A model generated the notes under the pieces. The model worked only from the letters and a program-made list of their open reading frames with translations, did no database searches and had not been told where the DNA came from. Position numbers and translations under genes: made by a program. From IMG/VR virus record IMGVR_UViG_3300029928_000198: 64,000 bases of DNA; one strand, written 5' to 3'. Of the stretch, positions 1,748-51,005 are shown in pieces. Position 1 is the stretch's first letter, and each line of letters opens with the position of its first letter. Source of the DNA: a virus.

Positions 1748-2026
1748 TCACCTCTTGGCCATGTCAGCCTTTACAAGGGCCTCCGCATCCTCCTGCGAAT
1801 AGGCCTTGCGCTGGAGTCTGGAGCCGTCGGGCCTCTGGATGGTGTAGGTGTACCCCCTTCTGACAGAGTACCCTTCGGAGCTGGGACGCTTCATGGGGAT
1901 GACCGACTTCCTCTTGTCGCGGGTTATGACGTATCCTTCGTGGCCCCATGCCGTGGGAACGGGGTTGGAAGCCCTTCCGGGAATCTTGGCGTTCGTCTTC
2001 TTCTTGGCTTTGATCTGCTTGACCAT
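1748..2026 (-). CDS. Small basic hypothetical protein
   Basis: Start moved to MVKQIKAKKK after GGAGG; the ORF-track start MDTHDG lies inside the repeated junction motif. Confidence 0.7.
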   Translation of the reverse strand: MVKQIKAKKKTNAKIPGRASNPVPTAWGHEGYVITRDKRKSVIPMKRPSSEGYSVRRGYTYTIQRPDGSRLQRKAYSQEDAEALVKADMAKR

Positions 2027-2030
2027 CGTA

Positions 2031-2070
2031 TATCCTCCCGATATGCCGTCGTGCGTGTCCATGGAGGATA
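2031..2070 (-). promoter_or_regulatory. Anti-SD/SD stem with junction motif copy 1 in the loop
   Basis: mRNA UAUCCUCC-(AUGGACACGCACGACGGCAUAUCG)-GGAGGAUA: 8-bp perfect stem covering the RBS of the 2026 gene. Confidence 0.6.
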
Positions 2071-2077
2071 ACAGGTT

Positions 2078-2317
2078 TCACGCCCAGCGTCCCATGAACT
2101 TCCCATGGGTGATGCCGAACATGGGCTTCAGGTCCTCGCGCCTGATGTAGTCCTGACCGCCGGCCATCCTGTACTCGGAAACGCCGATGATGTTCTCGTT
2201 GCAGTCCAAGCAGCGTGCGCGGCGGAATTCGAAGTAGACGGAGTCCTTGACCATGGTTCTGAAGACGGAGCCGTCCTTTATGGAGTCGGAGCCGCAGAAC
2301 GGACATATGCCCGACAT
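2078..2317 (-). CDS. Zn-finger hypothetical protein
   Basis: CPFC...CLDC. Confidence 0.7.
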   Translation of the reverse strand: MSGICPFCGSDSIKDGSVFRTMVKDSVYFEFRRARCLDCNENIIGVSEYRMAGGQDYIRREDLKPMFGITHGKFMGRWA

Positions 2318-2844: not shown

Positions 2845-2887
2845 GATACCTCCTGAATCGTCAGTCGTGCGTGTCCATGGAGGTTTC
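2845..2887 (-). promoter_or_regulatory. Anti-SD/SD stem with junction motif copy 2 in the loop
   Basis: mRNA GAAACCUCC-(AUGGACACGCACGACUGACGAUUCA)-GGAGGUAUC; 8 of 9 bp pair over the RBS of the 2839 gene. Confidence 0.55.
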
Positions 2888-3331
2888 AATCAGCGTTCGG
2901 AGGCTCCGAACCTCTTCAACGGCCGGGATGCATCCCGCATGTCTGGTCCTTCTGGCGAACCAGCGTCCCGCCTCGGCCGAGGCTTCGGAGAAGACGTTCT
3001 CCGGGAAGATGCCCGCATCGCCTGAAGCTATCGGTTCTCCCGTCTCGGAGCGATGGAACGCCGCCGAAAGACCGCCTCCTTCGAGGCGGAGGAACGGACC
3101 TTCCGGTGAATCCACCCTTATCAGACCGTAAAGCCCGTCGGAGAAGGTCGCCACGAGGGAAGGGTCGCCCATCGTCGTGTAGACCGCGCCATCGCATCCC
3201 TCGTCGGGACAGGCCAGCATCATCTCGCATCTTCCGGGGAAGACGTAGGTGATGCCCACCGGGGCCATGTCGGACCTTCCGCACACGGGGCATCTGATCA
3301 GGATCTGGTCAGGAAGGTTCAGGAATGTCAT
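2861..3331 (-). CDS. Zn-finger hypothetical protein
   Basis: CPVC...C; C-terminus MDTHD is encoded by the junction motif. Confidence 0.7.
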   Translation of the reverse strand: MTFLNLPDQILIRCPVCGRSDMAPVGITYVFPGRCEMMLACPDEGCDGAVYTTMGDPSLVATFSDGLYGLIRVDSPEGPFLRLEGGGLSAAFHRSETGEPIASGDAGIFPENVFSEASAEAGRWFARRTRHAGCIPAVEEVRSLRTLIETSMDTHD

Positions 3332-4699: not shown

Positions 4700-5193
4700 C
4701 TGAAAACACCTCTGAAAGGTCTCTTGTTCTTGGTACGGGTTATCCGGTACCCTTCGTTCTCTGTGGTTTCGCCAACTTCCAAAAATTTCACATTTTCGCC
4801 GTACCAGTCGTAATCCATATCCGAACCTTTGACTTCCCAAGGCTCGCAGATAGGCTCGATCCTGTAGACCCTTTCCTCAGGGGGAAGGATCTCGACGACG
4901 TCGATGCCGAGTTCCTTGAGTTCCGATGCATCGTGGATGACGATGTTCTCTATCCAGTACTCCATCTCCTCTTGGTAGGCGAACGTTCCGAGATTGCCCA
5001 GAACCTCGGCGGGATCCATATCGACGGTGTTCAGCTCGAAGTTGGCGAAGTTGTGGCTGATGTAGTCCTCGAACTGCTCCTCGCAGTTGTCCTCGATCCA
5101 GTTCCTCAGCTCGTCCATCGAGGATGCTATGACCGTTCCGTCGTAGACGAACTGGTAGTGTCCGTCCAAGTCGAATTCTTTGTCTGCAAACAT
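4696..5193 (-). CDS. Acidic paralog B with C-terminal RTKN tag
   Basis: Shares YxFxGxVIA...L..WI.. and YxIE.I.(E/K)PW.V.G with paralog A; ends RITRTKNKRPFRGVFR. Confidence 0.8.
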   Translation of the reverse strand: MFADKEFDLDGHYQFVYDGTVIASSMDELRNWIEDNCEEQFEDYISHNFANFELNTVDMDPAEVLGNLGTFAYQEEMEYWIENIVIHDASELKELGIDVVEILPPEERVYRIEPICEPWEVKGSDMDYDWYGENVKFLEVGETTENEGYRITRTKNKRPFRGVFR

Positions 5194-5222: not shown

Positions 5223-5241
5223 GCCGTCGTGCGTGTCCATG
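5223..5241 (-). repeat. Junction motif copy 3
   Basis: GCCGTCGTGCGTGTCCATG, identical to 2045-2063; intergenic. Confidence 0.75.
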
Positions 5242-5292
5242 TCTGCTTTCTTTTCAGGTGAGCGATTCTCCGGGATCTCCCCGTTCGATGGT

Positions 5293-5871: not shown

Positions 5872-6209
5872 GCTATCACTGCTCCAACCATAGCCGCCGC
5901 CATGAAGACGACGAATGTTATCACCAGAGAGAGAAGCCATCCGAGAACGGCCTGCCCTCCCGTGTACACATCGCCTTTTATCGCGAAGATGACGAGGGCC
6001 GCTATCGCTACGGCCAGTCCCCATGCGGGACCGATGAGCAGCGAAATCAGGGCCATCCCGCAAATCATCGCGGCGGGCATCATCCCCGACATGGCGGATT
6101 TGACCGTCATGACGAAGAGGATCAGTCCTATCACGATGGCAAGCGCACCGAACGAGCCGACGAATCCGGCCGCGAATGCGTCACTCAGCGTGAGTTCCGT
6201 TACAGTCAT
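5868..6209 (-). CDS. Small polytopic membrane protein (about 4 TM)
   Basis: Almost entirely hydrophobic; AGGAGG RBS. Confidence 0.8.
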   Translation of the reverse strand: MTVTELTLSDAFAAGFVGSFGALAIVIGLILFVMTVKSAMSGMMPAAMICGMALISLLIGPAWGLAVAIAALVIFAIKGDVYTGGQAVLGWLLSLVITFVVFMAAAMVGAVIA

Positions 6210-6226: not shown

Positions 6227-6248
6227 GCTGTCGTGCATGCGTCCATGG
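6227..6248 (-). repeat. Junction motif copy 4 (2-nt longer variant)
   Basis: GCTGTCGTGCATGCGTCCATGG, just upstream of the AGGAGG RBS of the 6209 gene. Confidence 0.6.
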
Positions 6249-7639: not shown

Positions 7640-9111
7640 CTGCGCATCCTCCTTGCATATGAGCGGGCCAGAGTACCCTCCTGCCCCATGTCCACCTCGT
7701 CGTACACGCGCATCCCACGGAACCCCGGGTCGGAAAGGACCTGCTTGGGGGTCCTTCCGGAGAAGCGGGAAAGCTTGGCGACGACGGTTCCGACGTCCGT
7801 TTCGGTTCCGTCCACGGTGTATCTGCGGTCGTCCCACGGCCTTCCGTCGCCGTCGTAGCGTTCGGACATCCTCTTCCTGAACATCGCATCCTGCTCGGTG
7901 ACGGGTTCGTCCAGCATGGCCATGTACGTTCTGGGGACGTCCATGTTCGGGGAACCGGTATCGGACTGGTCCAAGACGACGGAGAACGTCCTGTCCCCGT
8001 TGTCCACGACCCTTCCGGAAACCAGAATGCGTCTGGCGTCGCCTATCTCGGGCGCATCGACCTCCAGAACGCCGTAGTACACGCCCTTGCGGACGGTTGC
8101 CTTCAGCGGTCTGGTCCTCCCCTCGGTCATCTCGATGATGGATGCCCCGATGGCGTCGGCCTTGCTGCTGGGGGTGAGCCTTCCGGCTATGGGTGCGGTG
8201 ACGACTTGGACCCCGTACGTCTGGGTGGAGTAGGTGTCCACGGGATCGGAAGAGATCTCCTCGACCCTCCTGCGGACGCTTGCATCCGAACGTCTGAGCC
8301 TGTCGGCGGTCACGAACTCTTCGCTCATCGGGGGCAAGTCGCCCACATAGGGTTCGTCGGCGATCTTTTTCCGAACAGGCTCCGCGTACTCCACCTCGAA
8401 CACGTAATCGGGGTGCGTGCGGCCCAGCTCCTCTAGCTTCCTCCTGACGGTCTCGGCCTCGTTCGGATCGTAATACTGGACGGTGGATTCTGATGCCCTC
8501 AGGACGGAACCCGTGTAGTACCACTTCCGGGAATCTCCGGGAATGAGGGCCACTATCTCCATGCGACGGCCTTCTGGACGGATGGGCGACCTCATCCACG
8601 GTTCGTAGAGCGGGTCGTCCATCGGGTCGTACGGATTGTCCAGCGGTTCATCGTCGCTGGGGAACGGGGGCCATTCGGGATGATTGGGAACGACTCTAGG
8701 CGCGAAGGAGCCTATGTCGGTCTGGCCGTCCATCCTTCTGGTCTTGGGTGCGCGGAAGTCGAATCCCTTCAGATCGGGACGGTACGAGCCTTCGTATTCC
8801 CTGTAATCGAATTCCTCGTAGGCGGTATCGTCGTCGTAGCGGACGTCGAAATCGTATCCGGGATTGCCCTCGGCCATGGACTGGGCTATCGCCTTCACGT
8901 GCTGGCGGTGGAAGAACGGCCAGCGGAGGGGTTCGTTACCGATGCCATTCCCGTCGAACGGACGGAAGGAATCGTCCTCCGGGGCGCGGACGTATATCTC
9001 CAGATCGCCCGTTCTGGGAAGAGGGGCCTTCACGGTCTGGTCGATGGTCTTTCCGTCGGCGCGTATGGCGTCGTTCCTGACGAAACGCCTTCTGAACGAG
9101 AATCCCTTCAT
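7636..9111 (-). CDS. Large acidic multi-module protein with basic termini
   Basis: Two related modules ending NPGYDFDVRY and HPDYVFEVEY; N-terminus FRRRFVRNDAIR; C-terminus RSYARRMRR. Confidence 0.75.
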   Translation of the reverse strand: MKGFSFRRRFVRNDAIRADGKTIDQTVKAPLPRTGDLEIYVRAPEDDSFRPFDGNGIGNEPLRWPFFHRQHVKAIAQSMAEGNPGYDFDVRYDDDTAYEEFDYREYEGSYRPDLKGFDFRAPKTRRMDGQTDIGSFAPRVVPNHPEWPPFPSDDEPLDNPYDPMDDPLYEPWMRSPIRPEGRRMEIVALIPGDSRKWYYTGSVLRASESTVQYYDPNEAETVRRKLEELGRTHPDYVFEVEYAEPVRKKIADEPYVGDLPPMSEEFVTADRLRRSDASVRRRVEEISSDPVDTYSTQTYGVQVVTAPIAGRLTPSSKADAIGASIIEMTEGRTRPLKATVRKGVYYGVLEVDAPEIGDARRILVSGRVVDNGDRTFSVVLDQSDTGSPNMDVPRTYMAMLDEPVTEQDAMFRKRMSERYDGDGRPWDDRRYTVDGTETDVGTVVAKLSRFSGRTPKQVLSDPGFRGMRVYDEVDMGQEGTLARSYARRMRR

Positions 9112-11396
9112 CGGTTCCCACCTTCATAGTCGTCCAGTCTGGGCTGGCGTCTCTTCTTGGGTAGCCTTCCCTCCTGACGCGCTATATCGTACCGGTCGAT
9201 GGTTCCCATCAGCTCGCCCATCACTGGTACGGCAATGGAGTTGCCCGACTGGTGGTAGAGCTGGGAATCGGAGATTCCTGCATCCCTTGCGCGGTCGAAG
9301 GCCCAGTCCGGGAATCCCTGAAGCCTCCAAGTCTCGCGGGGGGTGAGCTTGCGTATGCGCATCCCGTCGTCCGAGATCTTGGTTATCGAGTTGCCCGAGG
9401 TCCCCGTTGTGCAGGTGGGGGCCAGACCGTCGGGGGAATAGACGCGCTTGATGGATTCGAAGCCCTTCATCCCATCGACTGTTCCGATCTGGCGGCATCT
9501 GTCGTAGACGAAGTTGTCCGTCTTCCTTGAGCCTGCTCTGGTGGTGACGGTGTTGGCGACCTCGTCGCGCTGCTTGGGCTTGAAGCGGAACCCGTTGCCG
9601 GACTCCTCCTCCTTCCTGTTGGATTCGTCCAGACCCTTCAGGCGTGCGTCGGATAGGAAGTACTTCTCCGGGACGTCGTTCTCCAGAATGTCCCCTAGGA
9701 CGGTGTTGGAGCCTGTTCCTACGGGAAGATCGGGGCAATCGTCGCCCAGATGCGAAATCATGTAGGCGCGTTTGCGGTTCTGGGGGGTTCCGAAGTCCTT
9801 GGCGTTGAGGGTCCCCCAGCGCGATGTGTATCCGAGGGAATCCAGATAGTCCACCCATGCCCCGAAGTCCTCCGCGTTCTGCTTCGAGAACACGGCGGGG
9901 ACGTTCTCCATGATGAGCCATTCGGGAAGGGTCCCTCTTGCTCTGGCATCGTCCAGCAGCCTTTCGACCTCCCATAGGAGGGACGAACGGCTGTCGGCCC
10001 CCTTGGCCATGCCCCTCTTCTTGGGATTGGCCCCGCTGAGGTCGGTGCAGTTGTGGACGATTATGCCTGCGGCCATGAAGGACGATGAGCCTTCGACCGT
10101 CAGGTCGTAGACGTCCTCCTCGTCCCCTTCGTCCTCGAATCTGAAAGGCGTCCATATCCATCCGTCCTCGTAGAACGGGCCGACCTTGGGCCTCCCGTCC
10201 TTCCTGAACTTGACGATGTACTGGACGTCGCCGTCCGTGCGGACACCGCCCACCGTCGATATTGACGCCGGGCAATGGTGGACGTACGCTATGAGCCTGA
10301 CCAGATCGTAGGCAAGCTCCCTGCTGGACGCCATCATCGTGACGCGCCCCTTCTCCATGCGGACCCCGTCGCCGTCTATGCATCCGTCCAGCAGGGCCTC
10401 GGCCAGATCGTGCGGAAGTCCCATGTACTTCTCTGGGATGCGCTTCTTCTTCGGCTTCGTCCCGAATTGGGAACAGAAGGCCTCCAGCTCCCTGCTCGAA
10501 ATGTAGACCTCTATGGCGGAGCCGTCCTTCTTCGCGGTGAATCTGGTATCGTAGAGCTTGGCGATGTCGCCCGCTTTGCCTTTTCCGAAGTGGAGCGATA
10601 CCCCTGCCGCTCCGCGTTTCTTCTCCGTACGGCCTCCGGCGATGTAGCGTCCGATGGTCCACCAGAACGACGGGTCGGTCATGCGCTCCGACAGATCGTT
10701 CCTGTGGCATGGGCGGATGGAATCGGCCCACGTGATGTCGATGCCGCCCCATTCGGGCATCGGCTTCTCCTCGGTCACTGGGAATCCGACGTAGCAGCTG
10801 TCGGCCGCCTTCTTCGCGCTTATCCACTCGGGCTTCCCGAATGCGCCCCTGAAATCATCGCCGTCCCAGTCCAGCGACCAGCGGCGGGCATAGACCTTGT
10901 GCTCGGGGGTGCATCTGAACACCTCCCCGCATCCGGCCTTGTACGAGCAAACCTGCTTCGTCCCCGTCCTGCGGGAAAGCAGGACCTTGTGCCATCTCCC
11001 GTCGTGGGAAAGGACGAAATCCCCGACCTCGACCTCGGATATGTTGACCAGACCCTTGGATGTGAGGACGGGCGTATCGGCGGCGAAGCACGGGAAGCTG
11101 TAGGTGAGGATGTCGGATTCGGGGACGCTTTCGATCTTTGTTATGTCGCCCAGATTCGGATTGTCCCCGTAGATGGCCTCGTACGATTTCGTGGCATACT
11201 TGTCTATCTCGGACGTGGCCACCACGTCGTGGGGTATCCCCTTCTCGATGAGGGACATCCTCTGCGCCCCGATTCCGGAGAAAAGCTCCGTGACTCTGAA
11301 CGGTTTGCCGTCCTTCGAATTCTTATTTGCGACCAGTCCGCGCGTGCGGCGTCTGGCCTCGGATGCACGAAGTGCTCTGTTCTTACTGGAGAACAA
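9108..11396 (-). CDS. C5-cytosine DNA methyltransferase interrupted by an intein
   Basis: ELFSGIG (motif I), YSFP|C (motif IV), IMENV (VI), QNRKR (VIII), RKLTPRETWRLQGFP (IX), SGNSI (X). Confidence 0.93.
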   Translation of the reverse strand: MFSSKNRALRASEARRRTRGLVANKNSKDGKPFRVTELFSGIGAQRMSLIEKGIPHDVVATSEIDKYATKSYEAIYGDNPNLGDITKIESVPESDILTYSFPCFAADTPVLTSKGLVNISEVEVGDFVLSHDGRWHKVLLSRRTGTKQVCSYKAGCGEVFRCTPEHKVYARRWSLDWDGDDFRGAFGKPEWISAKKAADSCYVGFPVTEEKPMPEWGGIDITWADSIRPCHRNDLSERMTDPSFWWTIGRYIAGGRTEKKRGAAGVSLHFGKGKAGDIAKLYDTRFTAKKDGSAIEVYISSRELEAFCSQFGTKPKKKRIPEKYMGLPHDLAEALLDGCIDGDGVRMEKGRVTMMASSRELAYDLVRLIAYVHHCPASISTVGGVRTDGDVQYIVKFRKDGRPKVGPFYEDGWIWTPFRFEDEGDEEDVYDLTVEGSSSFMAAGIIVHNCTDLSGANPKKRGMAKGADSRSSLLWEVERLLDDARARGTLPEWLIMENVPAVFSKQNAEDFGAWVDYLDSLGYTSRWGTLNAKDFGTPQNRKRAYMISHLGDDCPDLPVGTGSNTVLGDILENDVPEKYFLSDARLKGLDESNRKEEESGNGFRFKPKQRDEVANTVTTRAGSRKTDNFVYDRCRQIGTVDGMKGFESIKRVYSPDGLAPTCTTGTSGNSITKISDDGMRIRKLTPRETWRLQGFPDWAFDRARDAGISDSQLYHQSGNSIAVPVMGELMGTIDRYDIARQEGRLPKKRRQPRLDDYEGGNR
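10050..11090 (-). mobile_element. Intein (347 aa) with LAGLIDADG-type homing endonuclease
   Basis: Starts CFAADTPVLT, contains LLDGCIDGDG, ends VYDLTVEG..SF.A.GIIVHN; the +1 residue is the catalytic Cys (CTDLS). Confidence 0.92.
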
Positions 11397-18629: not shown

Positions 18630-19915
18630 CGTCTCGCCTCCTCCGTTGAGCATCTAAGGGGGACGGAACGCATCGGAATCCCGACGTCGTCGGAGCCGCA
18701 TCCGTCGGTCTCCTCGTTGACGGAAACGGAGCTTCCGCTACCTTCGATTCCCGCCTTCCGCTTAGAAATATATATAGGGGGTTCGAAACGCCCCCTTTTC
18801 CGTCCGTCGTCATCGATGCTGGGTGCATCCTCGTTTTGACGGACTCCGTCATCGTCTTCCGACGTGTTTTCGGGGTCGGAAACGGGCGTTTTCGCAGGGT
18901 TCCTCCTGCTATCCTTCCCCCATTCGTCGTTCCATCTTCCCGTGGACTTCAAACGGTCCGTCAAAGTGTTCCTCGGCATGCCGACGATGTACGCGATCGT
19001 CTTCCACGGAAGCCCCGTCTCGTCCTTCATGCGCGTCGCGATGTCAAGCACGTTCTCGGACGGGTCGTCCGACTCCTCCTCGGATTCCTCCTTGACCTTC
19101 ATCACGCCGTAGTAGCGTTCTATCGCCGGAAGCAGGTCGATCGATGCCGTTCCGCCGATGTATCTGTTGAAGTCCTCCCAGTCGAAGCCGTCTCCGACAT
19201 GGAATGTGGCGGAAGCCTCGTGGTCGTAGCAGTACTCCCCGGGCCTGATGGCCTCCTTCGTCTTCGTCCACTCGGTTATGGGGACCTTCACCAGTACAGG
19301 CTTGGTCCAGTTGTAGTTCTTCGCGAAAATGAACGCCTTCGGCGAATCCGACAGATTGGCCTTCTTGATGTACTTGGCATTCCAGCCGAGGTCCTTCTTC
19401 CACTCGGCGGTAAGGTTCCCGGGGTACTTCGGGTCGTTTATCCAGTTGCGGAATGCAGGTCCGATGGACTGCTTGCTGGGGCATAGGAACCATACCGCCA
19501 GACGGAACTTGCGTATCGTACCTAGGAACTCCTTCATCATCGCGGACGAGTTGCTGGAGTTGCCGTCTCCGGCTATGAAGTTCTGAGCCTCGTCCAGAAT
19601 CAGCAGGATCGTCACGTCCTTGCCGTTGTCCCGCAGTATCTCGTAGATCTTCCAGAAGGTGTCCCTCATGGTCTCCACGTGGTAGACGCCGTTGGGGCAT
19701 TCCACGACGAGCTTCCCGTTGCCCAGCTTGTGGAAGAAGATGATGTTCGTGAGGACGAACACCTTCCCCACGGCGGGATACATGCCCTTGACCAGCTGCT
19801 CGGAAACGGCGATGGCCGTATGGGTCTTACCTCCGCCGCGGAATCCGGATGTCAGCCATACGGCTCCGGGGAAGAGCATGTCGCCGTAGATCCCCTCGGC
19901 CTGCGACCTGCCCAT
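18617..19915 (-). CDS. P-loop ATPase of FtsK/HerA-related extrusion type (pleolipovirus NTPase / Zot-like) with C-terminal HTH
   Basis: Walker A GFRGGGKT, VLTNI, Walker B LLILDEAQ, TIRKF (Arg finger), LPWKTIAYIVGMPRNTLTDRL (HTH). Confidence 0.75.
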   Translation of the reverse strand: MGRSQAEGIYGDMLFPGAVWLTSGFRGGGKTHTAIAVSEQLVKGMYPAVGKVFVLTNIIFFHKLGNGKLVVECPNGVYHVETMRDTFWKIYEILRDNGKDVTILLILDEAQNFIAGDGNSSNSSAMMKEFLGTIRKFRLAVWFLCPSKQSIGPAFRNWINDPKYPGNLTAEWKKDLGWNAKYIKKANLSDSPKAFIFAKNYNWTKPVLVKVPITEWTKTKEAIRPGEYCYDHEASATFHVGDGFDWEDFNRYIGGTASIDLLPAIERYYGVMKVKEESEEESDDPSENVLDIATRMKDETGLPWKTIAYIVGMPRNTLTDRLKSTGRWNDEWGKDSRRNPAKTPVSDPENTSEDDDGVRQNEDAPSIDDDGRKRGRFEPPIYISKRKAGIEGSGSSVSVNEETDGCGSDDVGIPMRSVPLRCSTEEARRCSD

Positions 19916-22533: not shown

Positions 22534-22558
22534 CCAAGAAAACGCAACCCCTTAAATA
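22534..22558. promoter_or_regulatory. Conserved BRE-TATA motif, divergent copy
   Basis: CCAAGAAAACGCAACCCCTTAAATA followed by CGGAGTCC, like CTTAAATAGAGTCC in the sRNA promoters. Confidence 0.5.
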
Positions 22559-25745: not shown

Positions 25746-25823
25746 GGAAACATAGTCGGAAAACCATCTGGCCATCGCACAACCATTAAATAGCGTCCGG
25801 GTGAGAATCTACCGTCGATAACC

Positions 25824-28757: not shown

Positions 28758-29003
28758 TCATTCGGCGCACCCCCTGCCGATCACCTTGGCCGTGGTGTAC
28801 GGGGTGCGCTTCCTGAGGGTCGGATTCACTCCGGTAACGGTCGTCAGGACGACGTGCGCGCTGCTGACCGCTATGCCGTCGCATCCCCCGCTGACCATCT
28901 CTCCTGATGACTTGCGGGCATCCTCCGGCGTGGCGCAGTCCTTGACCACCAGAAGCCCGTTGTCCAGATACATGGTAAGACGGTAGAACTCCCAGTCGGT
29001 CAT
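28758..29003 (-). CDS. Hypothetical protein
   Basis: GAGGTGG RBS, ATGA coupling. Confidence 0.6.
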   Translation of the reverse strand: MTDWEFYRLTMYLDNGLLVVKDCATPEDARKSSGEMVSGGCDGIAVSSAHVVLTTVTGVNPTLRKRTPYTTAKVIGRGCAE

Positions 29004-30157
29004 AGGACCACCTCAACCGAGGACATGTCGGGCGCGAACTCCGCCTTCAGGTACGTCACGGATGTGAAGCGGCTCACGGATTCGAGCTTGGGGATGGTCA
29101 GCGTGTAGTTGCTGCATTCGACGCCCCCGTTCTCGTCCGGAGCTATCCTGATGCGCCTCATATCGCCCGACATCAGGACCCTGTAGCGGTCGGCCACGAA
29201 CCAGTCCGAGCTGATCGTGTGCTCGGAGTCCCTGCGGACGGTAACGCCGGGGCGGAAGACCTGCATGTATGCCGGCAATGACGCTTCTGGGTGGACGGCG
29301 GTCCTCCTGAACTCGGCCAGCTTCCTGCTCAGCGCGTCGATCAGACGCTCCTTCCCCTCCATCTCCTCCGCCTTGCTCTTCAACGCGGAATCCCTCTCCT
29401 CCAATGCAACGGCAAGGGACTTCCGCGATTCCTCCAGCTTCGCTTCCAGCTCCTTCTTCTCCGATTCGCCGGCCGAAGCCATGTCGGAGATCGTCCTGCC
29501 AAGCTCCGAAACCTGCTCCTCCATGCTCTTCCTGACGCCCTCCATCTCGGCGACCTTGGCTTCGGATTCCGTCAATGCCTTCCTCAGCACCTCGACCTCT
29601 TCCCTGTTGGGTTTGACGGACTTCTGGGCCAGCTTCTCCCTGAGCTTCGCTATGTCCGCATCCTTCTGGCGTATGGTGGCGTTGGCGTTGTCCAGCTTCT
29701 GCTTGTACATCGCGGCGACATTGTTCATCTCGCAGTTCATCTGCAAAAGCATCCCGCTCTTGGTCAGCGTCTCGCATAGCTCGGGGGAACACTTCATGAG
29801 GGCGTTGGCCAGCTCTATCGACGGCTTCCCGCCCTTCATGAAGATCCTCTTCAGGAACTCGAAGCGATCGGGAACCGACATCTCCAGAAAGAACTCCGCC
29901 CCGACCTTCTCTATCGGTATGGCGAAGTAGCAGTTCGATTCGATGCGCTTGTCCTTCAGGCGGACGAAGTAGGTCTCCCCGGGCTGGATGCTGACATCTG
30001 ACTGGCGGTCAACGTAGACCGTGACGCCCGAGTACGTGCTCTTCACGGAGCCGCTGCTGTCGCGGACGAAGGTGAGCGGGACGGCTGATGCCAGAGAAAC
30101 GACGGCGGGATCCCTCCTGTCGAATTCGACCTTGGGGCTTTCGGCCTTCGAGGTCAT
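29000..30157 (-). CDS. Coiled-coil protein with small beta domains at both ends
   Basis: Central E/K/L heptad region of about 150 aa. Confidence 0.75.
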   Translation of the reverse strand: MTSKAESPKVEFDRRDPAVVSLASAVPLTFVRDSSGSVKSTYSGVTVYVDRQSDVSIQPGETYFVRLKDKRIESNCYFAIPIEKVGAEFFLEMSVPDRFEFLKRIFMKGGKPSIELANALMKCSPELCETLTKSGMLLQMNCEMNNVAAMYKQKLDNANATIRQKDADIAKLREKLAQKSVKPNREEVEVLRKALTESEAKVAEMEGVRKSMEEQVSELGRTISDMASAGESEKKELEAKLEESRKSLAVALEERDSALKSKAEEMEGKERLIDALSRKLAEFRRTAVHPEASLPAYMQVFRPGVTVRRDSEHTISSDWFVADRYRVLMSGDMRRIRIAPDENGGVECSNYTLTIPKLESVSRFTSVTYLKAEFAPDMSSVEVVL

Positions 30158-31106: not shown

Positions 31107-31594
31107 CTGTGTGCCTCCCATTTTGGGATATGTGGTGTTCAGACCCGATGGGTCAGACGAAGAACGTACATCCTAATATTTAACGAATACCAAAATTCAA
31201 CTTTAGTTGAATAGTATTGAATCGTTCAAAGATTCAACAAACTGGGATTTTTATACGTTCCTAAAGATAGTCAAAAGCCCTGCCAGATTGCTGTGTGAAT
31301 GTGGTGTTCGTCGAATCTGGCGGGGTTCCGGTCAACAGAGGACCTTATCGACCCAAGGGCATCTGTCGCCTATGCTGAAGAACGCCACCGGGTCGGATTC
31401 CACCGACAGCACGGAGCCGTCGCACATGGAAAGGGAAAGACAATGCTCCGAAAGTGTAAGGCCCATGACGGAATCCATGCGATACGAGCGATCGCCGCAA
31501 TGGATCCTGTTACCGACTATTGCCGCTTTCTGCATGATTGTACAGTTTGGTGCGGTTTTATAAATGTTTTCCTATAAAGGACAATTTATCACAA

Positions 31595-31699
31595 AAAGGA
31601 AAAGACGGAAGCAACGAAGATAATGGGGTCCCCGTGCGGAACACGGGGTCTTGCCGGCTCGACACGGCAAGATAGGTTAGGACCATTGGATTGCTTCCG
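31595..31699 (-). ncRNA. Candidate small RNA C (about 100 nt): paired ends, two apical hairpins, U-tail
   Basis: CGGAAGCAA/UUGCUUCCG closing stem (31691-99/31606-14); 8-bp and 7-bp hairpins; 5' end about 23 nt from TATA at 31722-29; UUUUCCUUUUU tail. Confidence 0.6.
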
Positions 31700-31715
31700 G
31701 AAGGCTATTGCCTCC

Positions 31716-31741
31716 GGACTCTATTTAAGAACCGTGGCGAT
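31716..31741 (-). promoter_or_regulatory. sRNA promoter, direct repeat copy 1
   Basis: GGACTCTATTTAAGAACCGTGGCGAT, 24/26 identical to 31986-32011. Confidence 0.65.
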
Positions 31742-31742
31742 T

Positions 31743-31796
31743 GACCGCGCGGCCATTCAATAAGGGACGACCGCGCGGAATGACAAACATCGTCCC
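31743..31796 (-). ncRNA. Candidate small RNA B (about 35-55 nt)
   Basis: Starts GGGACGA 23 nt after TATA at 31819-26 and pairs with UCGUCCC; two CCGCGCGG palindromes give an alternative fold. Confidence 0.45.
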
Positions 31797-31836
31797 GATT
31801 TACAATCGGGCATCGGATTATTTAAGGATTCTATCA

Positions 31837-31968
31837 AAATTGTGATTCGTGGCCGGACAGCGTCCCATCCTCGTGATGCCGGCCACTGCGATCCGCGATT
31901 GGACAAGAAGGTGCTGCGCACGCACGACAGGTGGTCCAATGCGCAGCGTGTGTCCATGGACACGGACC
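31837..31968 (-). ncRNA. Candidate small RNA A (about 130 nt), pseudoknot-capable, complementary to the junction motif
   Basis: 5' end about 24 nt after TATA at 31992-99; GUGUCCAUGGACAC palindrome; crossing stems GCUGCGCA/UGCGCAGC and AUUGGAC/GUCCAAU; GUGGCCGG/CCGGCCAC hairpin then UUUU. Confidence 0.6.
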
Positions 31969-31985
31969 GAATCCTCAGTTCCCGA

Positions 31986-32011
31986 GGACTCTATTTAAGC
32001 ACCATGGCGAT
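31986..32011 (-). promoter_or_regulatory. sRNA promoter, direct repeat copy 2
   Basis: GGACTCTATTTAAGCACCATGGCGAT. Confidence 0.65.
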
Positions 32012-32034
32012 GGGCCTGCTGGACTTCCCGCTCG

Positions 32035-32127
32035 TCACTTGTTCCTCCTCTCATGGTAGATCGTGTAGACGAAAACCCCGAACGTCAATACCGTCATGAA
32101 CACGGTCAGCATGACCATCAGATACAT
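32035..32127 (-). CDS. 30-aa single-TM peptide
   Basis: Below the ORF-track cutoff: MYLMVMLTVFMTVLTFGVFVYTIYHERRNK; GGAGGTGG RBS. Confidence 0.6.
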   Translation of the reverse strand: MYLMVMLTVFMTVLTFGVFVYTIYHERRNK

Positions 32128-32624
32128 CGGACCACCTCCACTTCCCAGAAAGGATGCGACCTCGGCGACTCACCGGCGACCCAGCAGACATCGCGGTTCT
32201 CCCCGAACGTCGGTTCCAGATCGACCTTCACCGCCTTCAGATTCGACCTGCTCACCGATTGGTCCGACGCATACCGCGATTTGGCCGACTCCTCGGAGAA
32301 GAGCTTCGCATCGAAGTAGAACACCGAATCCCCCTCGCTGCTGTACATGATGGGATTCGCAGTGCTGATCGGCTTCCACCCCACGGTCAGAGCGGAACCC
32401 GGGGTGAAGAAGTCGGAACCCGGCGGGATGCCGCGCGTCCACATCCCGTCGTCGTTGACGAATCCCACGGAATCGGTTCTGGTCCTTCCCAGACGGTACA
32501 GCTTCGCGCTGAATCCGCAGCGTTTCTCCTGAAGCAGATTGAACGCCCGAACCCTAGCGTCCCTTATCAGGTCGCATTCGGCCAGCGCATGGGTCCCGTC
32601 GGGGAATTCCACGAAGTAAGGCAT
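32118..32624 (-). CDS. Hypothetical protein
   Basis: Start moved to MPYFVEF. Confidence 0.65.
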   Translation of the reverse strand: MPYFVEFPDGTHALAECDLIRDARVRAFNLLQEKRCGFSAKLYRLGRTRTDSVGFVNDDGMWTRGIPPGSDFFTPGSALTVGWKPISTANPIMYSSEGDSVFYFDAKLFSEESAKSRYASDQSVSRSNLKAVKVDLEPTFGENRDVCWVAGESPRSHPFWEVEVVRCI

Positions 32625-38150: not shown

Positions 38151-38180
38151 TACAAGGAATCGAAACCGCTTAAATATCGA
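38151..38180. promoter_or_regulatory. Conserved ACAAGGAA-BRE-TATA motif copy
   Basis: TACAAGGAATCGAAACCGCTTAAATATCGA. Confidence 0.65.
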
Positions 38181-50980: not shown

Positions 50981-51005
50981 ACAAGGAATCGAAATCCTTT
51001 AAATA
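50981..51005. promoter_or_regulatory. Conserved ACAAGGAA-BRE-TATA motif copy
   Basis: ACAAGGAATCGAAATCCTTTAAATA, upstream of the Panacea-like gene. Confidence 0.65.

Follow-up and report, generated by a model that had tools for sequence, protein, structure and literature searches.

The window, meaning the whole 64,000-nt stretch of DNA analysed here, is an archaeal mobile element of gut methanogens. Its control region holds, in order, a tandem array of short units, a 67-aa Cys-rich open reading frame (ORF), an AbrB/MazE-like gene, an RHH-NYN gene and the gene of a 385-aa coiled-coil protein, and the order from the array to the 385-aa gene is the same in relative contigs. Pfam matches in these neighbours were to AbrB/MazE, NYN, DUF3990 and DUF3791 only. 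The unannotated 67-aa ORF (31332-31535, minus strand), directly after the array, is regarded as real because six relatives keep it at 51-55% identity; a TATA box lies about 21 nt 5' of its AUG, and its transcript looks leaderless. Upstream, the non-coding stretch 31536-32034 contains the predicted small RNA that we call RNA A, and directly 5' of this stretch lies a gene for a 30-aa hydrophobic micropeptide (32035-32127, minus strand), which is kept in relatives. The NYN-domain gene is also paired with a distant homolog of the 385-aa gene in 38 of 261 genomes of the Methanomassiliicoccales, and the context was otherwise unrelated in the six loci examined; the genomes with this pair had nothing else in common with the element and no TATA arrays, so the array is not an obligate partner of the NYN protein. 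Elsewhere in the window, a C5 cytosine DNA methyltransferase gene (9108-11396, minus strand) is split by an intein with Hint and intein-splicing domains, as is the case in an L149-type relative of the element.

In every relative, a tandem array precedes the 67-aa ORF, with between two and seven TATA boxes that each head a GC-rich folded unit of 70-110 nt. Boxes with the pattern NTTAAATA are found 22-64 nt 5' of protein genes at 31184 (minus), 25785 (plus) and 60830 (minus), and further upstream of 38169 (plus) and 50998 (plus); since the same boxes precede protein genes, those on the minus strand at 31999, 31826 and 31729 within the array are credible archaeal promoters. The features of the array in the window are as follows.

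31992-31999, minus strand: TATA box CTTAAATA of the RNA A unit, with spacing kept in homologs.
31897-31969, minus strand: predicted RNA A, about 70-85 nt, from the conserved unit and folds.
31953-31964, minus strand: segment a, CGUGUCCAUGGA, a 12-nt match to junctions J1 and J2 (listed below).
31940-31947, minus strand: 5' strand of the main hairpin stem, GCUGCGCA, pairing with 31913-31920.
31921-31939, minus strand: main hairpin loop, its 3' part being segment b, GUCGUGCG, at 31921-31928.
31913-31920, minus strand: 3' strand of the main hairpin stem, UGCGCAGC, from stem covariation and folds.
31897-31912, minus strand: pyrimidine-rich tail 3' of the hairpin, beginning ACCUUCUU.
31590-31826, minus strand: array units B (box 31819-31826) and C (box 31722-31729), ending in a U-rich tract.

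The 5' end of RNA A (around 31969) was placed from the TATA spacing and its 3' end was set at the pyrimidine tract, which is possibly a weak terminator and anti-SD-like; that RNA A is produced, and its strand, promoter use and ends, we infer from the sequence. Unit C (31590-31729, minus strand) has two hairpins, whose stems, read by eye, are apparently kept with changed sequence in the relatives L149, L153 and L157, and a clear U-rich terminator closes it; a repeated target complementary to unit C was not seen. The arrays of these three relatives (L149:7349-8178, L153:7400-8579 and L157:7419-8579) consist of five to seven tandem units and share a promoter block of CACCY, then ATTATATAG, then GCGCA; the last L149 unit starts with a second copy of GUCAUGCGG. 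A different, near-identical 25-nt promoter block (ACAAGGAATCGAAAYCS then YTTAAATA) occurs on the plus strand of the window at 1121-1145, 38152-38176 and 50981-51005, with weaker versions at 22551 and 33441; two are without a downstream protein gene.

Homologous elements were reached via the neighbouring 385-aa protein, giving divergent relatives (41-65% identical) on contigs L149, L151-154, L157, L158 and L179. Seven sequences carry RNA A as a conserved unit, and they form two subfamilies, one comprising the window, L151, L158 and L179 and the other L149, L153 and L157. The RNA A homolog is the first unit of each relative's array, and the order is always a TATA box, 30-34 nt, GUCCAUG, the hairpin, and ACCU followed by pyrimidines. 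The most conserved parts across the seven sequences are the 5' segment, whose GUCCAUG core (31955-31961 in the window) forms invariant columns of the family alignment, and the loop segment. Across the family the hairpin loop ends in GUCGUGCG or GUCAUGCG; its 3' end is GUCGUGCG in the window, L151, L158 and L179 and CGUCAUGCGG in L149, L153 and L157, the family consensus is GUCRUGCG, and the loop of the L153/L157-type elements reads ACGUCAUGCGGAU. A small ORF starting from the AUG within GUCCAUG was considered and rejected, its frame differing between homologs.

The stem sequences are unrelated between the two subfamilies, and pairing is kept within each: the window, L151 and L158 show two compensatory pairs with 100% pairing, and L149, L153 and L157 three compensatory pairs and one G.U with 95.8% pairing, against 13-67% in slid controls. 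Fold stability was unremarkable (z from -1.2 to -2.7), and the argument for structure is covariation and not stability because the fold energies are unexceptional; in the predicted folds, segment b is partly paired inside the loop.

Other routes to homologs recovered little. Relatives of the adjacent 304-aa protein were near-identical, with non-coding DNA 99-100% identical, and were uninformative for covariation for that reason. A DNA search of 261 Methanomassiliicoccales genomes gave no homolog of the region, a search of viral contigs with the 385-aa alignment gave no matches, and a covariance model built on one subfamily gave only weak recovery of L158 and L151 and failed to detect the copy in the window. 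Exact 17-mer scans for the junction motif described below found nothing in viral contigs and scattered single matches only in species genomes, one of them within a coding region of a Methanoplasma genome, and a search for the palindrome-plus-loop pattern returned only the same element and one chance match in a high-GC bacterial contig. Neither a tRNA nor an Rfam family was found for the RNA A region, even at E<=1, and RNA A is outside every described RNA family. It does not read as a box C/D or H/ACA guide or a TIGR array: in addition to the lack of an Rfam match, no RUGAUGA box was seen on inspection, the units are TATA-led and 70-110 nt long, and no Nop-domain protein occurs among the scanned neighbours.

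The strand of the unit bears on what it could do. If it were transcribed from the plus strand, as the original prediction had allowed, the RNA would carry motif-sense copies and titrate a motif-binding factor as a 'sponge'. The TATA box is nearly symmetric, and a terminator-like hairpin with a T-run lies on the plus strand at 31972-31998, as would suit such a transcript; however, the stems of L153 and L179 contain G.U pairs, which become A.C mismatches on the plus strand and so fit the gene-sense strand only, the upstream CACC/AACC and downstream GAGCGCA elements share their polarity with the confirmed mRNA promoter at 25785, and the plus-strand fold of the unit has a z of just -0.4. Minus-strand, gene-sense transcription is favoured because of these G.U pairs, because the layout of TATA box and upstream elements matches that confirmed promoter, and because U-rich tracts occur on the minus strand; the sponge appears very improbable.

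On the minus strand, RNA A would contain complements to both halves of a motif found at distant gene junctions, as had been predicted: the plus strand of 31913-31968 reads CACGCACGAC at 31919-31928 and CCATGGACACG at 31954-31964, and the 10-nt match of segment b to the motif reaches into 31919. The 17-nt motif, CCATGGACACGCACGAC, occurs on the minus strand exactly at 2048-2064 and 2864-2880 and, with a single mismatch, at 5226-5242. At 6230-6248 lies a variant that is longer by 2 nt and can pair with RNA A through CUGUCGUGC, as claimed for this copy, the match extending to 12 bp with one G.U. The junctions are:

2046-2065, minus strand: J1, 27 nt 5' of the AUG at 2026, within the loop of a predicted SD-hiding stem.
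2864-2881, minus strand: J2, 24 nt 5' of the AUG at 2839, within the loop of a predicted SD-hiding stem.
5226-5242, minus strand: J3, 32 nt 5' of the AUG at 5193, the orthologous site being kept in the L149-type element.
6228-6248, minus strand: J4 (variant), 20 nt 5' of the AUG at 6209.

These junctions are all found at the distal end of a single long minus-strand operon (about 22337 down to 1531), 26-30 kb from RNA A and in a different operon. The sequences of the copies were as predicted, but the second is not intergenic: J2 forms the last five codons of gene 2861-3331. At J1 (2026-2080, minus strand), the upstream ORF, the motif AUG and the downstream ORF share one frame with only a TGA between them, which may be coincidence. 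The motif could also be read as a peptide (M-D-T-H-D, M-D-P-H-D, M-G-P-H-D or M-E-A-H-D), for which the C/U difference between sites would be a synonymous His change. This reading was rejected: an in-frame AUG is missing from at least three of the 11 sites (L160:8726, L160:16539 and L177:15391, on contigs of the relatives described next), J4 is frame-shifted, and the residues beyond HD are unrelated.

Junction motifs were compared across window-type, L149-type and L151-type elements. The L149-type contigs L159 and L160 have distal genes syntenic with those of the window, and L160 carries four sense-strand motifs (8726, 16539, 17224 and 19183) with the core CGCAUGAC, which reads CCGCAUGAC in three of the four; the one at 19183 sits at the junction orthologous to J3, and a fifth L149-type site lies 5' of the gene at L149:4178. 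The second L151-type contig, L177, has two motifs with the core CGCACGAC, one of them (L177:16776) at the junction orthologous to J4. Every one of the 11 junction motifs is on the sense strand, and 10 lie 20-32 nt 5' of a start codon; that all 11 are on the mRNA strand fits an RNA-level role.

Loop and target change together between the two subfamilies. The loop GUCGUGCG goes with the target core CGCACGAC, and the L149-type loop CGUCAUGCGGG with the core CCCGCAUGACG, such that CACGCACGAC pairs with GUCGUGCGUG in the window type and CCCGCAUGAC with GUCAUGCGGG in the L149 type, whose loop matches five sites over 14, 12, 11, 10 and 9 nt. RNA and target are compensated at two positions between the window/L151 type and the L149 type, as expected from the co-variation that had been named as a check on the original prediction; as there are only two independent subfamilies, this is a single evolutionary contrast. 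Target variants within the duplexes, at J4 and L160:8726, are changes from C to U opposite G, which still allow G.U pairing. In the L151 type, segment b has C in place of U; the stem of RNA A itself compensates this change, which leaves a mismatch with one of the two known targets. The pairing model further predicts that junction cores of the L153/L157-type elements would read UCCGCAUGACG(U). Taken as sequence comparison, these data support a functional link between RNA A and the junction motif through base complementarity, and RNA and motif changing together in related elements points to a real trans-acting RNA regulator.

Single 10-12-mers common to the 500-nt non-coding stretch and the window are frequent, at chance level, and about 40% of shuffled loops match some 10-mer, with 2.7% matching three or more. 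The chance of both motif halves being matched within 50 nt on one strand is estimated at about 1e-5 or less per whole window. By seed-only hybridisation energy, the junctions rank modestly among all translation-start regions (z about -2), and whole-RNA duplexfold against sliding windows did not single them out, a comparison that is non-discriminating in DNA as GC-rich as this.

The co-change of all sites would be predicted equally well if the shared sequences were double-stranded DNA sites for an element-encoded DNA-binding protein (the AbrB/MazE-like, the RHH-NYN or the 67-aa zinc-type protein), the control-region copy acting as an autoregulatory operator, the junction copies as roadblocks or internal operators, and the protein having changed its specificity. 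The adjacent genes do encode DNA-binding proteins, and segment a sits within a palindrome of 14 nt (31950-31963) that is perfect in window-type and L151-type units and lies just 3' of the predicted start, the classic position for a repressor. However, this palindrome is absent from the L149, L153 and L157 units, and the 11 junction sites share one orientation with the control-region copy in the opposite one. The half-sites are adjacent at the junctions but 20-27 nt apart and swapped in the RNA A unit, a covarying flanking stem with G.U pairs would be superfluous for a DNA site, and the target variants are of the wobble type. A role as DNA sites is, on this balance, improbable.

A purely structural origin appears still less probable. 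The RNA A hairpin might terminate the upstream adhesin-micropeptide operon or serve as a processing signal at its end, or it might be a leader element of the regulatory genes; its likeness to the motif would then stem from shared ancestry of short sequence blocks, and it would have no pairing function. The unit begins 36 nt past the stop codon of the micropeptide gene, its hairpin is followed by a pyrimidine tract, and the interval from the TATA box to the predicted start seemingly retains a small hairpin, all of which would fit; left unexplained are the top conservation of the loop and GUCCAUG, and the tracking of the motif by the loop in the L149 type with its 11-14-nt matches.

Gene content beside the motifs differs between relatives, and extra L149-type genes are bracketed by the motifs L160:16539 and L160:17224, as might be expected if the junction motifs were cassette recombination sites and the control-region copy their partner, in the manner of integron attI and attC. 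The motifs, however, are short and without attC-like inverted repeats, their placement follows the distance to the start codon and not the ends of cassettes, and the neighbour scan, by its Pfam matches, detected no recombinase near the control region; we give integron-like cassette sites hardly any credence.

The reading in which we have moderate confidence is that minus-strand RNA A pairs in trans with the bipartite motif and likely coordinates the distal genes post-transcriptionally. Under this base-pairing model, the control region of a mobile element or provirus of the Methanomassiliicoccales type would hold a tandem array of RNA genes, each led by a TATA box, with RNA A as the first unit. 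The target of RNA A would be the bipartite motif, CAUGGAC then CGCAYGAC, which several genes at the operon's far end have mostly 20-32 nt 5' of their start codons. The main contact would be made by the 3' part of the hairpin loop with the CGCAYGAC core, and, in targets that have the CAUGG(A/G)C half, a second one with it by the conserved 5' GUCCAUG. The distal genes would then likely be co-controlled post-transcriptionally, via translation initiation or mRNA fate.

The geometry of the pairing constrains how both contacts could be made. A single ordinary continuous antisense duplex is impossible, because segments a and b share the 5'-to-3' order of the target halves, and the two segments overlap on CACG, to which both are complementary; simultaneous pairing therefore requires a clamp or pseudoknot-like geometry, in which the helix of segment a would lie alongside the stem. 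RNA A has linkers of 7 and 0 nt in one subfamily and of 1 and 3-5 nt in the other, lengths that would at least permit such an arrangement. The original prediction had segment a invading the anti-SD strand. Its 11-12-nt match holds for the window type, where it belongs to the 14-nt palindrome, but it is special to that type, and in the other element types the match covers 6-8 nt.

The proposal that RNA A acts as a switch likewise held in part: the pairing is backed by conservation and covariation, but an SD-pairing stem with the motif in its loop was predicted at just three of 10 folded junctions (J1, J2 and L149t:28671). The specific version, in which RNA A is a two-handed clamp that uses a 5' seed and a loop seed around one stem to recognise a dedicated address motif 5' of selected distal genes and turn on their translation by opening hidden ribosome sites in toehold fashion, is rather unlikely; if true, the specificity code would differ between element lineages, as in phage heteroimmunity. 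Of the possible outcomes of the pairing, repression as by immunity RNAs and the unmasking of hidden ribosome sites are about equally probable, and guide-directed processing is less probable than either.

By analogy, RNA A most resembles, in function, phage immunity antisense RNAs and archaeal trans-acting sRNAs. The c4 RNA works through two segments, and between P1 and P7 the RNA and its target carry matching changes. Like c4 of P1/P7 (immI) and the P4 CI RNA, RNA A would be a small structured RNA that a temperate element carries in its immunity or control region, with short single-stranded segments that pair with sites 5' of the controlled genes; a passage of PMC8198154, citing Citron and Schuster 1990, describes c4 as an antisense RNA needed for blocking ant. 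Unlike these RNAs, whose target is just downstream in the same transcript, RNA A is archaeal, has TATA promoters and has several candidate targets 26-30 kb away in another operon, and there is no sign of its processing from a target transcript; neither is there sequence or Rfam similarity to c4 or P4 CI at gathering score or E<=1.

Among archaeal RNAs, RNA A is comparable to the base-pairing sRNA162, sRNA154 and sRNA41 of Methanosarcina mazei, which bind 5' regions or ribosome sites, and some M. mazei sRNAs have several sites within polycistronic mRNAs. Those RNAs are chromosomal and linked to metabolism, whereas RNA A lies on a mobile element in a tandem RNA array and would recognise a dedicated repeated motif and not the SD itself. 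Two characteristics of trans-encoded sRNAs were found here, namely conserved seeds complementary to sequences near translation starts (the loop GUCRUGCG and the 5' GUCCAUG) and seed-target covariation, seen in one contrast. J1, J2 and L149t:28671 also recall the targets of anti-antisense activators of the DsrA/RprA-rpoS type and synthetic toehold switches, as their SD is predicted to pair with an upstream arm while the motif is looped, and RNA A binding could free the SD at these three sites; unlike in those systems, seven of 10 junctions are without an SD-hiding stem.

The adjoining gene for a 30-aa hydrophobic peptide recalls type I toxin-antitoxin systems, as the 5' half of the RNA A loop can form 13 bp (one G.U) with the micropeptide SD and AUG at 32125-32137. 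This match is near chance for an 800-nt region and occurs in the window only, being lost in the relatives although they keep the micropeptide, and the conserved parts of RNA A point instead to the distant motif; RNA A was not assigned to this class. The same loop half (GGACCACCU, 31929-31941) has the look of an anti-SD mimic, and it could form 9 bp at 29005-29013 with the ribosome site of gene 28758-29003.

To our knowledge, archaea have yielded few well-characterised trans-acting base-pairing sRNAs. Literature searches of a general kind, not aimed specifically at the RNA A family, returned no paper on an archaeal virus or provirus that encodes a base-pairing sRNA and none describing this family. 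The case of RNA A offers a short conserved RNA, a defined address motif with multiple targets, and natural compensatory variants in sister elements. If the base-pairing model is true, the combination of array, hairpin loop and motif would be a signature for spotting such control regions in metagenomes, and mobile elements of gut methanogens would coordinate a distal gene block post-transcriptionally by means of lineage-specific RNA-target codes.
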